NCBI GenBank assembly: GCA_028292225.1
Contig: JAQGMV010000252.1
Coordinates: 1 to 54,734, forward strand
DNA: 54,734 nt
Direction: 5' to 3'
DNA from: Betaproteobacteria bacterium
Lineage (GTDB): Bacteria; Pseudomonadota; Gammaproteobacteria; Burkholderiales; SG8-41
A model generated the notes under the pieces. That model had not been told where the DNA came from and made no database searches. It saw nothing but the letters and a program-made list of their open reading frames with translations. Shown one piece after another: positions 25,590 to 54,734 of this stretch; the first letter of the stretch is position 1, and each line of letters begins with the position of its first letter. Position numbers and translations under genes: made by a program.

Positions 25590-25610
25590 CGCCGCATTGC
25601 GGCGCTAGTC
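25584..25610 (+). terminator. 12-bp perfect hairpin embedding the TAG stop of TctC copy 2
   Basis: gactagcgccgc-att-gcggcgctagtc. Confidence 0.5.
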
Positions 25611-25615
25611 GGCGC

Positions 25616-25698
25616 AGTGTTGAGTTGTGAGTGTTTAGTATTGAGTTGTTGGCGGGCGGACCGGACAGCTTGACGGCCATCACTCATCACTCAACACT
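25616..25698. repeat. Heptamer-array inverted-repeat element, copy A
   Basis: Left arm: AGTGTTG AGTTGTG AGTGTTT AGTATTG AGTTGTT. Spacer: 27 nt, GC-rich. Right arm: CATCACT CATCACT CAACACT. Lies between convergent TctC genes. Confidence 0.85.
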
Positions 25699-39118: not shown

Positions 39119-39964
39119 ATGACTTCATCGCGAGTTTCCGCTTACGACCTGCACTGCCATTCGACCCGGTCCGACGGCGTCATGCAGCCGGGAGAGGTCG
39201 TGGCGCGGGCTGCGCAGCGAGGCGTGAAGACGCTCGCGCTCACCGATCATGACGAACTCAGCGGGCTCGTCGAGGCGGGCGCCGCGGCAGAGGCCGCAGG
39301 AATCCGCCTGATCGACGCAGTGGAAGTCTCGGTGACCTGGCACGACCACACGATTCATATCGTCGGCTTGCACGTCGATCGCGGCCACGAAGTACTGATC
39401 GAAGGCCTGCGCTCCAACCGCTCCGGACGGTACGAGCGGGCGGAGCGCATGTCCGCGGAGCTCGAACGCGTCGGCATCCCCGGAGCGCTCGCAGGCGCTC
39501 AGGCATACGTCACCAATCCCGAGCTCGTGAGCCGCACCCACTTTGCGCGCTTCCTCGTCGAAAGCGGCCGCGCCCGCAGCACGCAGGCCGTCTTCGACAC
39601 CTATCTGGGCACAGGGAAACCCGGCTACGTTGCCCACGAATGGGCGAGCCTGCAGGATGCCGTCCACTGGATCCGTGTCGCCGGCGGCATGGCGGTCATC
39701 GCCCACCCGGGGCGCTACAAACTCGACGATTCCCGGCGCGACGAGCTGCTGGGAACGTTCAGGGATCTCGGCGGCGTCGGAATCGAGGTGGTGACCGGAA
39801 GCCACACGCCCGACCAGTACGGCTACTGGGCGAGGCGCGCGGGCGAATTCGGATTCCTCGCTTCAACCGGGTCCGATTTTCATGGGCCGCGCGAGAGCTA
39901 TCGCGACCTGGGCGACTTGCCGCCGCTGCCGGCCGGCTGCCGCCCGATATGGGATGAGTTTTGA
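39119..39964 (+). CDS. trpH: PHP-domain phosphoesterase TrpH/YciV (RNase AM-like)
   Basis: YDLHCHSTRSDG...LALTDHD...HIVGL. Followed by yciO, as in E. coli. Confidence 0.9.
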   Translation: MTSSRVSAYDLHCHSTRSDGVMQPGEVVARAAQRGVKTLALTDHDELSGLVEAGAAAEAAGIRLIDAVEVSVTWHDHTIHIVGLHVDRGHEVLIEGLRSNRSGRYERAERMSAELERVGIPGALAGAQAYVTNPELVSRTHFARFLVESGRARSTQAVFDTYLGTGKPGYVAHEWASLQDAVHWIRVAGGMAVIAHPGRYKLDDSRRDELLGTFRDLGGVGIEVVTGSHTPDQYGYWARRAGEFGFLASTGSDFHGPRESYRDLGDLPPLPAGCRPIWDEF

Positions 39965-40051
39965 GTGTTCAGTGATGAGTGTTTAGTGATGAGTCGCCGA
40001 TACGCGCTGATATGCCGTTCACTAAAAACTCAACACTGAACACTTAAAACT
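39957..40051. repeat. Heptamer-array inverted-repeat element, copy B
   Basis: Left arm: AGTTTTG AGTGTTC AGTGATG AGTGTTT AGTGATG. Spacer: about 25 nt, GC-rich. Right arm: GTTCACT AAAAACT CAACACT GAACACT TAAAACT. The first heptamer overlaps the trpH stop codon. Confidence 0.9.
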
Positions 40052-40063
40052 GAAGTCCCCTCC

Positions 40064-40687
40064 TTGGCTCAGCTTTTCAACATCCACCCGGAGAACCCGC
40101 AGCCGCGGCTGATCCGCCAGGCCGCCGAGATCGTGCGCGCCGGCGGGGTGATCGTGTATCCGACCGACTCGTGCTGCGCGCTGGGATGCCGCATTGGCGA
40201 CAAGGCGGCGATGGAGCGCATACGCGAGATACGCGGGGTCGATGAGCGCCATCATCTGACGCTGGTGTGCCGCGATCTCGCGGAAATCGGCCAGTATGCG
40301 AAAGTCGACAACACGCAGTTCCGCCTGCTCAAGGCGACCACGCCGGGCAGCTACACTTTCATTCTGCAGGCGACGAGAGAGGTTCCCAAGCGTCTGCTCC
40401 ATCCGAGCCGGCGCACGATCGGGTTGCGAGTGCCGGAGCACACCGTCGCCCAGGCGTTGCTCGCGGAGCTCGGAGAGCCGCTGCTGTCCTCGACATTGAT
40501 GCTTCCTGGTGACGAGCAGCCGCTCAACGATCCGGAAGAAATCCGCGAGCGCCTCGAGCGCCGCATCGAGCTCGTGATCGATGGAGGCCCGTGCGGCATC
40601 GTGCCCACCACGGTGGTCGATCTCACCGGCGATGTGCCCGTCATCACGAGGGTAGGCAAAGGCAGCACGGCACCTTTTGGCGCCTAG
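40064..40687 (+). CDS. yciO: YciO (YrdC/Sua5-fold) protein
   Basis: TTG start gives (M)AQLFNIHPENPQPRLIRQAAEIVRAGGVIVYPTDSCCALGC..., collinear from residue 1 with E. coli YciO as I recall it. Confidence 0.9.
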   Translation: MAQLFNIHPENPQPRLIRQAAEIVRAGGVIVYPTDSCCALGCRIGDKAAMERIREIRGVDERHHLTLVCRDLAEIGQYAKVDNTQFRLLKATTPGSYTFILQATREVPKRLLHPSRRTIGLRVPEHTVAQALLAELGEPLLSSTLMLPGDEQPLNDPEEIRERLERRIELVIDGGPCGIVPTTVVDLTGDVPVITRVGKGSTAPFGA

Positions 40688-40701
40688 CGCGCCAAGAGCG
40701 C

Positions 40702-40839
40702 AGTGTTGAGTTTTAAGTGTTGAGTGGTGCGCCGCGAGCGGACGCAATGAGGTGCCGAAGTTGCCGATGTTAGAATCCGCCGCAGACGTGCTGCATGCGC
40801 GCGACCCCACTAAACACTCAACACTCATCACTAAACATT
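40702..40839. repeat. Heptamer-array inverted-repeat element, copy C
   Basis: Left arm: AGTGTTG AGTTTTA AGTGTTG AGTGGTG. Spacer: about 75 nt. Right arm: CCCCACT AAACACT CAACACT CATCACT AAACATT. Confidence 0.9.
40768..40776 (+). promoter_or_regulatory. Extended -10 promoter element (TGtTAGAAT) inside the spacer of element C
   Basis: Matches the TGnTAtAAT pattern. TAGAAT is also the -10 of the four rRNA-leader promoters in this window. No good -35. Confidence 0.4.
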
Positions 40840-40848
40840 GAATTCCAG

Positions 40849-41547
40849 GTGGACTTAAACCTCGTCCAGGTGATCGCGATATACGCGTTGCCGGTCATAC
40901 TCGCGATTACCCTGCACGAAGCCGCGCACGGTTATGTCGCGATGCGCTTCGGCGACATGACCGCGTATGCGGCCGGCCGCGTGACGCTGAACCCGATCAA
41001 GCACATCGATCCCATCGGAACCATCGCGCTGCCGCTGGCACTGCTCGCGCTCGGCAAGCTCTTCGGCGGCGGCGGTATGCTTTTCGGCTGGGCGAAGCCG
41101 GTGCCGGTCAACTTCGCGAACCTGCGCCATCCGAAGCGCGACATGCTCTGGGTCGCCGCTGCCGGACCGATGAGCAATCTTGCGATGGCCCTGCTGTGGG
41201 CGATCGTCGCGAAGCTGAGCATCTCTATGCCGCAAAGCGCCTTTGCGCTTCCGCTCGCGCTCATGGGCGCGGCCGGTGTTCTGGTGAACCTCATCTTCAT
41301 GGTGCTCAACCTGCTCCCGCTGCCGCCGCTCGACGGAGGGCGCATCCTGACGAGCCTGCTTCCGCATCGTATGGCGTACGCGTTTTCGCGCGTCGAGCCG
41401 TACGGATTCATCATCCTTCTGGTGCTGCTTTTCACCGGCGTGCTCGGCTTCGTTTTGTGGCCGCTGGTCAGCGTCGCGCTGTGGATTTTCGAGCGCGGTT
41501 TCGGCGTGCCGTTCGTCGAGCTCATCAGCCTCGCGCGCGCGCGGTAG
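40849..41547 (+). CDS. Site-2 protease (M50) family membrane metalloprotease
   Basis: ALPVILAITLHEAAHGYVAMRFGD (HExxH in a TM helix) and NLLPLPPLDGG. GTG 40849 is preferred because the first 18 codons of track ORF 40795 consist of the heptamer repeat. Confidence 0.85.
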   Translation: MDLNLVQVIAIYALPVILAITLHEAAHGYVAMRFGDMTAYAAGRVTLNPIKHIDPIGTIALPLALLALGKLFGGGGMLFGWAKPVPVNFANLRHPKRDMLWVAAAGPMSNLAMALLWAIVAKLSISMPQSAFALPLALMGAAGVLVNLIFMVLNLLPLPPLDGGRILTSLLPHRMAYAFSRVEPYGFIILLVLLFTGVLGFVLWPLVSVALWIFERGFGVPFVELISLARAR

Positions 41548-54122: not shown

Positions 54123-54199
54123 GCGCGGGGTGGAGCAGTCTGGCAGCTCGTCGGGCTCATAACCCGAAGGTCATAGGTTCAAATCCTATCCCCGCTACC
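54123..54199 (+). tRNA. Initiator tRNA-fMet (anticodon CAT)
   Basis: 77 nt. I folded the cloverleaf by hand:
- acceptor CGCGGGG/CCCCGCU with C1 unpaired against U72
- D arm GAGC/GCUC
- anticodon arm UCGGG-CUCAUAA-CCCGA, with three consecutive G:C pairs
- T arm AUAGG-UUCAAAU-CCUAU
- A73 and an encoded CCA. Confidence 0.9.
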
Positions 54200-54427: not shown

Positions 54428-54734
54428 TAAACTGAAGAGTTTGATCCTGGCTCAGATTGAACGCTGGCGGCATGCCTTACACATGCAAGTCGAACGGCAG
54501 CGCGGGGCAACCTGGCGGCGAGTGGCGAACGGGTGAGTAATATATCGGAACGTGCCCTGGAGTGGGGGATAACGCAGCGAAAGTTGCGCTAATACCGCAT
54601 ACGATCTAAGGATGAAAGCAGGGGACCGCAAGGCCTTGTGCTCCTGGAGCGGCCGATATCTGATTAGCTAGTTGGTGGGGTAAAGGCCTACCAAGGCATC
54701 GATCAGTAGCTGGTCTGAGAGGACGACCAGCCAC
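54428..54734 (+). rRNA. rrs: 16S ribosomal RNA, 5' end (continues beyond the window)
   Basis: AAACTGAAGAGTTTGATCCTGGCTCAGATTGAACGCTGGCGGCATGCCTTACACATGCAAGTCGAACGG is the universal 27F region plus a betaproteobacterial-type helix 6 region. Confidence 0.97.

Follow-up and report, generated by a model that had tools for sequence, protein, structure and literature searches.

Heptamer-armed intergenic hairpin elements around yciO and across the genome of a Betaproteobacteria bacterium

Two heptamer-armed elements on either side of yciO

We analysed a stretch of 54,734 nucleotides (hereafter, the window) from a Betaproteobacteria bacterium (assembly GCA_028292225.1, here G000; contig JAQGMV010000252.1). 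It contains a string of genes for which a sequence-only reading had proposed the names trpH, yciO, M50 and trpS, and Pfam confirmed these names (PHP, Sua5_yciO_yrdC, Peptidase_M50 and class I W/Y tRNA synthetase, respectively). The same reading had described tandem heptamers facing their reverse complements on both sides of yciO and at a third site; the three elements were confirmed in position and in all their sequence details.

The first of them (copy B) has a left arm of five tandem heptamers (AGTTTTG, AGTGTTC, AGTGATG, AGTGTTT, AGTGATG; 39957-39991), a unique GC-rich spacer of 25 nt (39992-40016) and a right arm (GTTCACT, AAAAACT, CAACACT, GAACACT, TAAAACT; 40017-40051), none of them assigned to a strand. 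Its arms, 33 nt each, are 91% complementary. The PHP/TrpH-like gene takes its last Phe codon and its TGA stop (39962-39964) from the first of these units, and the element ends 12 nt upstream of the TTG start of yciO (40064), with no Shine-Dalgarno motif between the right arm and this TTG. We checked the start positions of yciO and of the M50 gene against homologues; the N-terminus of yciO presumably agrees with that of E. coli YciO.

Copy C begins 14 nt past the TAG of yciO; 9 nt separate its end from the GTG start of the M50 peptidase gene (40849). Its arms (40702-40729, with AGTGTTG, AGTTTTA, AGTGTTG and AGTGGTG; 40805-40839, with CCCCACT, AAACACT, CAACACT, CATCACT and AAACATT), also unstranded, enclose a spacer of 75 nt (40730-40804, forward strand) that carries an extended -10-like motif, TGTTAGAAT (40768-40776). 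A GC-rich hairpin on the forward strand (TTGGCGC-CTAGC-GCGCCAA; 40677-40695), the loop of which holds the yciO stop (40685-40687), lies 6 nt upstream of the element. The third copy (25616-25698, unstranded; five left units, a 27-nt spacer and three right units) is located between two convergent genes, directly after a GC-rich hairpin.

The pairing of the arms that had been suggested was supported by RNA folding, with -53 kcal/mol and a z-score of -9.8 for copy B, -4.3 for the third copy and -2.5 for copy C. No Rfam family was matched, either by the window at gathering thresholds or by 39900-40900 at an E-value cut-off; these scans returned only sub-threshold miRNA-precursor-like hairpins. Among the roles proposed for these elements was that of attenuators. 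Identity as intrinsic terminators or attenuators was unsupported, as a terminator scan of 39900-40900 was empty and the stems are AT-rich, lack a U-tract and have start codons directly after them. A consensus promoter scan, which needs a -35 element, found nothing, including in the copy C spacer.

One design and several dialects in a single genome

A genome-wide search retrieved 105 AGTGTTK-type arrays, forming 41 cleanly paired elements and ~15 more with a degenerate second arm (about 55-60 in total), which bore out the idea of a dispersed intergenic repeat family. These elements are far beyond chance: the reversed-pattern control gave 0 matches in the same genome. They share a design of 3-7 tandem units, a unique GC-rich spacer and reverse-complement units, with arms of about 4.5 units on average (~32 nt) and interiors of 7-117 nt without any ORF. 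The unit is well defined (A.95, G.95, T.97, G.81, T.68, T.85, K.80) and devoid of GGG runs; AGTTATC is a rare variant. AGTGTTK does not stand alone: G000 has at least five dialects of identical design, the others including GGTAAAC, GAATGAT/GAATGCG, GTRAATS and GAGGGAT. More generally, tandem repeats of AT-rich units in this genome comprise 135 arrays of period 7 versus at most 14 for periods 5, 6 and 8-11.

At the threshold used, G000 contains 223 heptamer arrays, 189 of them intergenic. The elements occupy entire intergenic gaps, at medians of ~8 nt after stops and ~6 nt before starts, gene boundaries having been set by a crude GC3-based ORF caller that biases the distances to start codons short; right arms finish 0-12 nt from start codons, leaving no room for a Shine-Dalgarno site. 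Where an element has two near neighbours, these are co-directional in 22 of 29 cases. RNA folding z-scores fall below -3 for 34 of the 41 family members, and GC-rich hairpins abut 18 of the 41 (24% of flanks versus 5% of random 35-mers). We found no cargo-bearing element in G000; one array pair, 931 nt apart, encloses an ordinary membrane-protein-like ORF of 256 aa. Contig ends show no overall excess of arrays (7 observed, 6.7 expected) in this assembly, from which about 6% of the genome is missing; the ends of contigs C108, C100 and C327 adjoin positions occupied by elements in relatives.

The sequence-only reading had also considered MITE-like mobility. Classical MITE- or REP-type DNA elements, mobilised by a transposase reading the arrays as terminal inverted repeats, would account for inverted and repeated ends, for presence/absence polymorphism at orthologous junctions and for a patchy occurrence among relatives. 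However, target-site duplications are absent (flanking direct repeats average 1.73 nt versus 1.93 nt in shuffled partners), copies share no interior and arm length is variable, and we rejected MITE identity. RAYT/REP identity was rejected as well, since the sole Y1 (RAYT/IS200-type) transposase gene of G000 (Y1_Tnp; C467:12646-12972) is flanked by a different palindrome family, AATCGGGGACAGACCCCGATT, without heptamers. Together with the arrangement of the arms at the yciO-M50 junction (see below), this makes a transposase-borne origin of this type highly improbable.

The arms of an element do not appear to be matched to each other. Complementarity within elements (0.78) is no higher than that between arms of different elements (0.77; p = 0.19), arm lengths within an element are variable and uncorrelated, and no covariation between arms was detected. 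In the GAATGAT/GAATGCG dialect the unit types of the two arms are even anti-correlated (r = -0.71, p = 0.003), and therefore perfect pairing is not the conserved feature. Such statistical independence would be expected if the arrays were neutral heptanucleotide microsatellites, grown by polymerase slippage from native 7-mers near gene ends without dedicated machinery, the hairpins being functionless by-products. Work cited in PMC4692102, as far as that account relays it, ascribes the heptamer excess of many bacteria to polymerase slippage. Nevertheless, slippage leaves unexplained both why arrays almost always come in pairs (inverted in 46 of 47 adjacent pairs) and their polarity, with the G-rich arm coming first in 36 adjacent pairs versus 1.

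Orthologous junctions and PF05635 cassettes in other genomes

The distribution of these repeats among relatives is burst-like and mosaic. The AGTGTTK dialect (A) is abundant only in G000, G011, G020 and G022 (4 of 41 relatives), and another dialect, labelled B, only in G000 and G015. Among other genomes of the order, 5 of 300 contain the AGTGTTK dialect, each with at most 11 matches. A scan of contigs across phyla found at least 120 stretches, a sample and not a census in which single short matches in AT-rich genomes may be due to chance; among the matches listed, identical elements occur in Chloroflexota, Planctomycetota, Armatimonadota, Bacteroidota and Firmicutes.

Comparison of the trpH-yciO and yciO-M50 spacers of relatives confirmed the presence/absence polymorphism that had been proposed as a check: orthologous junctions are empty in some relatives and hold a decayed copy or a different dialect in others. 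In G000, G011, G009 and G015 the trpH-yciO junction carries the AGTGTTK dialect, and G012 has the GAATGAT dialect there; the copy B spacer has no similarity to those of G011, G009 and G015 (spacer identity of 0.46 versus 0.47 for shuffles). In the same way, the junction C277 has the GGTAAGC dialect in G000 and AGTGTTK in G011. The yciO-M50 spacers of G003, G009 and G015, which have no arms, contain the motif TGnTAGAAT as well, and the G012 spacer has a weaker TGTTAAACT in its place. The arms thus lie outside a promoter-like core common to arm-less relatives, so that simple one-piece insertion fails as an explanation at this junction.

Other features of the orthologous copies speak for slippage. 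Their unit number and order vary, decayed copies were seen in G001 and G007, and native near-units occur at empty sites: the trpH-like gene of the element-free G006 ends in cAGTTTTGA, and the empty site C283 of G000 contains GCGTGAGGGGCG. However, the all-or-none mosaic of dialects among close relatives, the sharing of the AGTGTTK unit and of the design with distant phyla and the constant association with PF05635 described next would not follow from slippage, and we regard a purely neutral origin as quite improbable.

In relatives, arrays of assorted dialects bracket small PF05635 genes at 12 of the 12 loci of the first set fetched and at most of those of the second set. They are inverted, with the same polarity as in G000, also at tight gene junctions. 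An IVP-like ORF of Alishewanella (L068, 955-1518) has AGTGTTK-type arms on both sides. G015 contains an IVP cassette of which one arm was found, the right one, of GGTGAAC type; its genome gives 291 matches of this dialect. At a junction between what we take to be the end of a dnaK-like gene and the start of a dnaJ-like gene, G001 has an IVP cassette that is intact and G011 one that is broken, and G000 has the native spacer. We detected no PF05635 gene or remnant in G000 using Pfam, a custom HMM (E up to 10) and tblastn, ~6% of the genome being unassembled, and no reverse transcriptase (RVT_1) gene. PF05635 is missing from G020 as well, and the sole copy in G011 is broken and has arms of another type; therefore, the arrays persist without their proposed partner. 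Our literature search found no work linking PF05635 to heptamers.

Possible roles and relationship to known heptanucleotide repeats

It is well supported that the G000 elements are gene-less members of a class of intergenic heptamer-armed hairpins. In each, two convergent arrays of 7-nt units, with their G-rich strand inward, surround an arbitrary interior, and in related genomes the identical architecture surrounds a small PF05635 gene (encoding the 23S-rRNA intervening-sequence protein, an Avd-like four-helix bundle). Our preferred explanation goes further. The gene-less elements would sit within transcription units, and RNA from either strand would have (AGUGUUK)n as its 5' arm and (MAACACU)n as its 3' arm, able to pair as an imperfect stem of about 25-35 bp, its base a few nt from the upstream stop and the downstream start codons. 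Such a stem is of the type cut by RNase III, which excises 23S rRNA intervening sequences at their 28-bp terminal stem (PMC4990558). By analogy, the element may be clipped from the operon mRNA, or at least tolerated there, separating the cistrons. The arms would stay near the consensus unit rather than remain complementary to the partner arm, unit number would drift in line with replication slippage, and the family would arrive or expand in lineage-specific bursts. mRNA processing is the best functional guess, probably with cutting by RNase III; for the whole account (gene-less relatives of the cassettes, transcribed inside operons as hairpins, cut by RNase III and spread in bursts) we consider the chances of being right or wrong about even.

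A broader proposal is that the arrays would be more than slippage products: they would be traces of a single system, so far unrecognised, that moves horizontally and has the PF05635 (Avd-like) cassette as its autonomous form. Arrays would be added or renewed at gene boundaries, with the same junctions hit repeatedly and orphan arms left behind. Inward G-rich arrays might sometimes be placed around pre-existing regulatory DNA, as at yciO-M50; repeat targeting might be seen at trpH-yciO, at C277 and at the junction that we read as dnaK-dnaJ (two different cassettes, in G001 and G011); and orphan arms could be long-lived in genomes that lost the gene, such as G000. Taken as a whole, this seems somewhat unlikely to us.

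Alternatively, the arrays might be single-stranded RNA or DNA sites for a protein reading ~7 nt per module, for instance cold-shock proteins or ribosomal protein S1. Directly ahead of start codons, the A/C-rich (MAACACU)n arm would be a Shine-Dalgarno-independent site for ribosome loading or regulation and the G/U-rich arm its anti-sequence, making a switch that the protein could titrate. MacGregor made the same proposal for the TAACTGA repeats (PMC4679880), the reverse complement of which rotates to AGTTATC, a minor unit variant in G000, and the closeness of right arms to start codons agrees with it. In addition, the unit is conserved over genera and even phyla yet the trpH-yciO spacers are unrelated and partner arms do not covary, which points to sequence-specific reading over pairing. 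Against this, the elements are equally frequent beside stop codons and in the gaps of convergent gene pairs, the coexistence in one genome of at least five dialects that look unrelated would not be accounted for by one binding protein, the M50 gene has no Shine-Dalgarno site even in arm-less relatives, and no candidate protein was identified. We therefore consider these protein sites an unlikely explanation. The RNase III reading, if true, would make the elements a common and overlooked punctuation of operon mRNAs; if wrong, the conserved unit sequence would point to some reader protein.

An excess of intergenic heptanucleotide repeats has reportedly been noted since the description of the cyanobacterial STRR in 1990, and we know of no accepted function or origin for them to date. 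A 2007 survey noted such an excess in bacterial genomes, according to its citation in PMC4692102. G000 is useful in this respect because it holds several dialects side by side, shows gain, loss, decay and dialect replacement clearly at orthologous operon junctions, and has kept 223 arrays although the PF05635 gene that such arrays bracket in relatives is missing. Any mechanism has to accommodate the 36:1 inward G-rich polarity, arms of ~32 nt, the lack of arm covariation and the lack of target duplication.

Several known systems resemble the G000 elements in part. Like REP/BIME sequences and MITEs, they are short, dispersed, intergenic and hairpin-forming, with tens of copies. However, each REP is one conserved palindrome linked to a Y1 transposase, a type of system that G000 possesses separately, with another sequence, whereas MITEs have conserved interiors and target-site duplications, of which the G000 elements have neither. 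The protein-coding 23S rRNA intervening sequences of Coxiella and Leptospira (S23p/PF05635; PMC4990558) also have inverted ends forming a long stem (~28 bp); in contrast, the G000 copies lack an ORF and lie outside rRNA, and their excision by RNase III would be an analogy.

The AGTGTTK elements belong to an already described class of repeats (Xanthomonas GGGAATC inverted pairs, STRR and TAACTGA). The sequence-only reading had asked whether they form a new family: the AGTGTTK unit has indeed no match in Rfam or in the literature, where a search for the literal repeat strings found no bacterial paper, but the design was already known (PMC4692102, PMC4679880). A close parallel is that of the GGGAATC/GGGGAYT repeats described by Rehm et al. 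(2015, PMC4692102) in Xanthomonas and Nostoc, of unknown function. These are also tandem 7-nt units, about 90% intergenic, which hug the nearest ORF end in any orientation and vary much in length and sequence among close relatives; Xanthomonas has 70-75 pairs per genome of convergent arrays, one on either strand, the G-rich arm leading. Unlike the AGTGTTK arrays, those repeats are rich in G-tracts, have been studied as G-quadruplex formers and reach 14 or more units, compared with 3-7 here. Moreover, a single unit type was considered there, versus several coexisting dialects in G000, and PF05635 cassettes were not linked to the repeats.

Unit sequences of the STRR/TAACTGA type include CCCCAGT, TTGGTCA and CAACAGT (STRR), whereas the G000 consensus is AGTGTTK. 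As in cyanobacterial STRR and in the TAACTGA repeats of marine Beggiatoaceae, cyanobacteria and Bacteroidetes (MacGregor 2015, PMC4679880), the G000 arrays lie a few nt from starts without a Shine-Dalgarno site; in Beggiatoaceae, arrays of 2-6 units are placed directly upstream of such start codons. Nearly all TAACTGA repeats are direct and lack a partner (169 direct sets versus 1 indirect), in contrast with the G000 arrays, nearly all of which have an inverted partner. Both are patchy across phyla, which suggests horizontal spread, with no known vehicle (PMC4679880). Read on the other strand and rotated, TAACTGA becomes AGTTATC, a rare unit in G000, and has the AGT..T. skeleton in common with the elements described here.

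Heptamer elements of the window and their genomic family

The window elements have the architecture described in the sequence-only reading, namely AGTGNTN units, a spacer and reverse-complement units. In copy B (39957-40051), a GC-rich spacer of 25 nt separates five units from five reverse-complement ones, and the arms of 33 nt are 91% complementary, in agreement with the imperfect ~30-35 bp stem proposed. Copy C (40702-40839) has 4 + 5 units separated by a 75-nt spacer, and a third copy is indeed present at 25616-25698. Pfam supported the gene names trpH, yciO, M50 and trpS (PHP, TrpH-like; Sua5/YciO/YrdC; peptidase M50; class I Trp/Tyr tRNA synthetase), and the placement relative to these genes was also as claimed: the PHP gene stop TGA falls within the first heptamer of copy B, the yciO start TTG lies 12 nt beyond its end, and the M50 start GTG 9 nt beyond the end of copy C. 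The window also carries a tRNA gene (54124-54197) and ends within a 16S rRNA gene, of which it includes the initial 306 nt (54429-54734).

The motif is not confined to the window. A phase-aware scan of the source draft genome G000 (5.40 Mb, 544 contigs, 64.9% GC), in which the window corresponds to contig C541, detected 105 AGTGTTK-type arrays, including 41 elements cleanly paired left and right; most of 23 'single' arrays have a degenerate partner, giving ~55-60 elements. A family of dispersed AGTGTTK elements therefore exists; the initial observation is confirmed and its interpretation partly supported. The unit logo is A.95 G.95 T.97 G.81 T.68 T.85 K.80, the mean arm has 4.5 units, and the spacers (7-117 nt) show no mutual similarity. 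The expected hairpin potential was found, with folding z < -3 in 34 of the 41 elements (-9.8, -2.5 and -4.3 for copies B, C and the third copy). Rfam scans of the window and of 39900-40900 yielded no match to the window elements. No intrinsic terminator was predicted over 39900-40900, so that the attenuator role that had been considered is not supported.

These elements fill nearly the entire intergenic gap (median ~8 nt past the stop and ~6 nt ahead of the start), with stop codons inside the left arm in seven cases (-2 to -15 nt). Neighbouring genes are co-directional at 22 elements, convergent at five and divergent at two. Operon transcripts would carry the elements as long, imperfectly paired hairpins that RNase III would process or that would at least be tolerated. 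Complementarity is no higher between the two arms of the same element (0.78) than between arms taken from different elements (0.77, p = 0.19), and left and right arm lengths are uncorrelated (r = -0.17). The unit sequence is conserved although the arms do not covary, which points to a factor that recognises the heptamer itself and keeps protein binding as a less probable alternative.

Short GC-rich hairpins, some with a stop codon in the loop, lie just outside many elements (window 40677-40695 and 25590-25606; G000 contig C277:~6050-6080). They adjoin 18 of 41 elements, at 24% of flanks versus 5% of random genomic 35-mers, a weak control for intergenic DNA. Arrays are not enriched overall near G000 contig ends (7 observed, 6.7 expected); contigs C108/C100 and C327 end beside positions of AGTGTTK elements in relatives, so that the repeats may cause some assembly breaks.

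Several dialects of one design

Tandem Repeats Finder, applied to AT-rich units in the whole of G000, revealed a large excess of period 7, with 135 arrays compared with no more than 14 for each of the periods 5, 6 and 8-11. Besides AGTGTTK, at least four further unit types, or dialects, make up inverted elements of this design: GGTAAAC/GGTGAAC, the most abundant in G000 and exceeding AGTGTTK, GAATGAT/GAATGCG, GTAAATS/GTGAATG, GAGGGAT and others (e.g., C154:786-920, C1:1534-1651, C420:3075-3203, C133:4377-4453, C249:8590-8653 and C170:15008-15114). Among adjacent period-7 array pairs, 46 of 47 are inverted and none direct, the arm with the G-rich top strand comes first in 36 pairs versus one, and most AT-rich arrays (189 of 223) lie between genes. 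We suggest that this orientation, with the G-rich strands pointing inward, may keep Rho from loading on the C-rich arm.

In the GAATGAT/GAATGCG (AATGATG/AATGCGG) dialect each arm contains both unit types, in proportions that are anti-correlated between the arms (r = -0.71, p = 0.003, n = 15; 12 same versus 27 different unit by unit), as at C133:4371-4459, C249:8583-8666, C400:8321-8401, C302:15460-15604 and 11 others. Such opposite mixtures would put regular 2x2 mismatches into the stem. An unusually long pair at C10:10005-10250 (~13 GCGTGAG-type and ~10 CCTCACT-type units) shares its dialect with PF05635 cassette arms of the closest relative, G001 (L148).

Orthologous junctions and distribution

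Comparison of trpH-yciO and yciO-M50 orthologs, proposed in the sequence-only reading, revealed presence, decay, absence and dialect change among relatives. At trpH-yciO, AGTGTTK elements occur in G000, G011, G009 and G015 (another genus), and decayed copies in G001, G007 and G014, the position being taken in G012 by an element of the GAATGAT/GCGGAAT dialect; the junction is element-free and tight (1-16 nt) in G003, G004 and G006, and element-free with a 38-nt spacer in G008. Spacers of the four AGTGTTK copies are unrelated (identity 0.46 versus 0.47 for shuffles), in contrast to the arms, which agree with the unit skeleton at 0.8-1.0. The element-free trpH of G006 ends in cAGTTTTGA, a native near-unit, and the first G000 unit, AGTTTTG, retains the Phe codon and stop seen there. 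At C277:6080-6180, directly after a hairpin (aaacttcctcc..ggaggaagttt) conserved between both genomes, the element is of the GGTAAGC type in G000 and of the AGTGTTK type in G011; C483 and C506 each have an AGTGTTK element common to G000, G007 and G009. These comparisons indicate that the same junctions were hit repeatedly or that elements were replaced in place.

At yciO-M50, an extended -10-like TGnTAGAAT (window 40768-40776, and the same spacer in loci L129-L138) is conserved across genera. It is found in arm-less G003, G009 and G015, with a weaker TGTTAAACT in its place in arm-less G012, and is probably a promoter inside the gene string that serves its M50-trpS portion. The arms of G000 and G011, like the decayed ones of G001 and G007, lie outside this core, adjoining the coding sequences, so arms can enclose pre-existing regulatory DNA. 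Neither this nor the repeated hits or in-place replacement fits one-piece insertion of a MITE-like mobile repeat, as had been envisaged, and no target-site duplication was found at element flanks. G000 has a single Y1 (RAYT/IS200-type) transposase gene, which lies within C467:12250-13150 and is flanked by AATCGGGGACAGACCCCGATT palindromes, a REP-like family that carries a AATCGGGG motif and is separate from the heptamer elements.

Three consecutive AGTGTTN units (one mismatch allowed) matched 79 times in G000, 80 in G011 (same genus), and 70 and 68 in G020 and G022 (other genera of the family), a few times in five further genomes and never in the other 32, with 0-1 matches for the reversed pattern. 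High counts of GGTAAAC x3 were confined to G000 (149) and G015 (291). Across the order (300 genomes, 61 families), five genomes had any AGTGTTK match (maximum 11). In a scan with one genome per species, the unit occurred in many phyla among the matches listed, and elements of identical design were found in Chloroflexota (L036, L084), Gemmata and Urbifossiella (L043, L098), Fimbriimonadaceae (L085), Prevotella (L056, L123) and Ruminococcus (L126). Such a mosaic has the appearance of bursts in particular lineages combined with horizontal spread.

PF05635 cassettes and known heptamer arrays

PF05635 proteins resemble the DGR accessory protein Avd (PMC10053308), and RNase III cuts S23p-type intervening sequences at the terminal stem (PMC4990558). 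Genes for PF05635 occur in 14 of the 41 genomes compared (1-7 copies each). Heptamer arrays, with their own dialect each time, bracket the gene at 12/12 loci fetched first and at most of a second set, which makes the architectural kinship with AGTGTTK elements real. An Alishewanella IVP-like ORF (E = 2e-12, HMM built here) likewise lies between AGTTTTA/AGTGTTT units and ~13 AAACACT units. At a dnaK-like/dnaJ-like junction, identified from translated ends rather than Pfam, G001 has an intact cassette (L158, G001:C20), G011 one interrupted by TAG (L153, G011:C13:181200-182600), and G000 a native terminator-like spacer (C336:2622-2739); the two cassettes differ in their arms (CGTGAAA; GTGAAGG).

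PF05635 is absent from G000, whose arrays are orphans, and from G020, and is broken in G011. AGTGTTK-rich G022 has one cassette with AGTGATT arrays, and GGTAAAC-rich G015 one with a GGTGAAC-type right arm, the only arm found. Dialect abundance does not simply follow PF05635 gene presence. If the cassette system does write arrays, the finding gains interest.

The sequence-only reading was aware of no described equivalent in Betaproteobacteria. Inverted intergenic heptamer arrays are a class already described in the literature (PMC4692102), and the AGTGTTK family is a member of it. The family is also similar to start-proximal heptamer arrays (PMC4679880) and has the same design as the PF05635 cassettes of its relatives.
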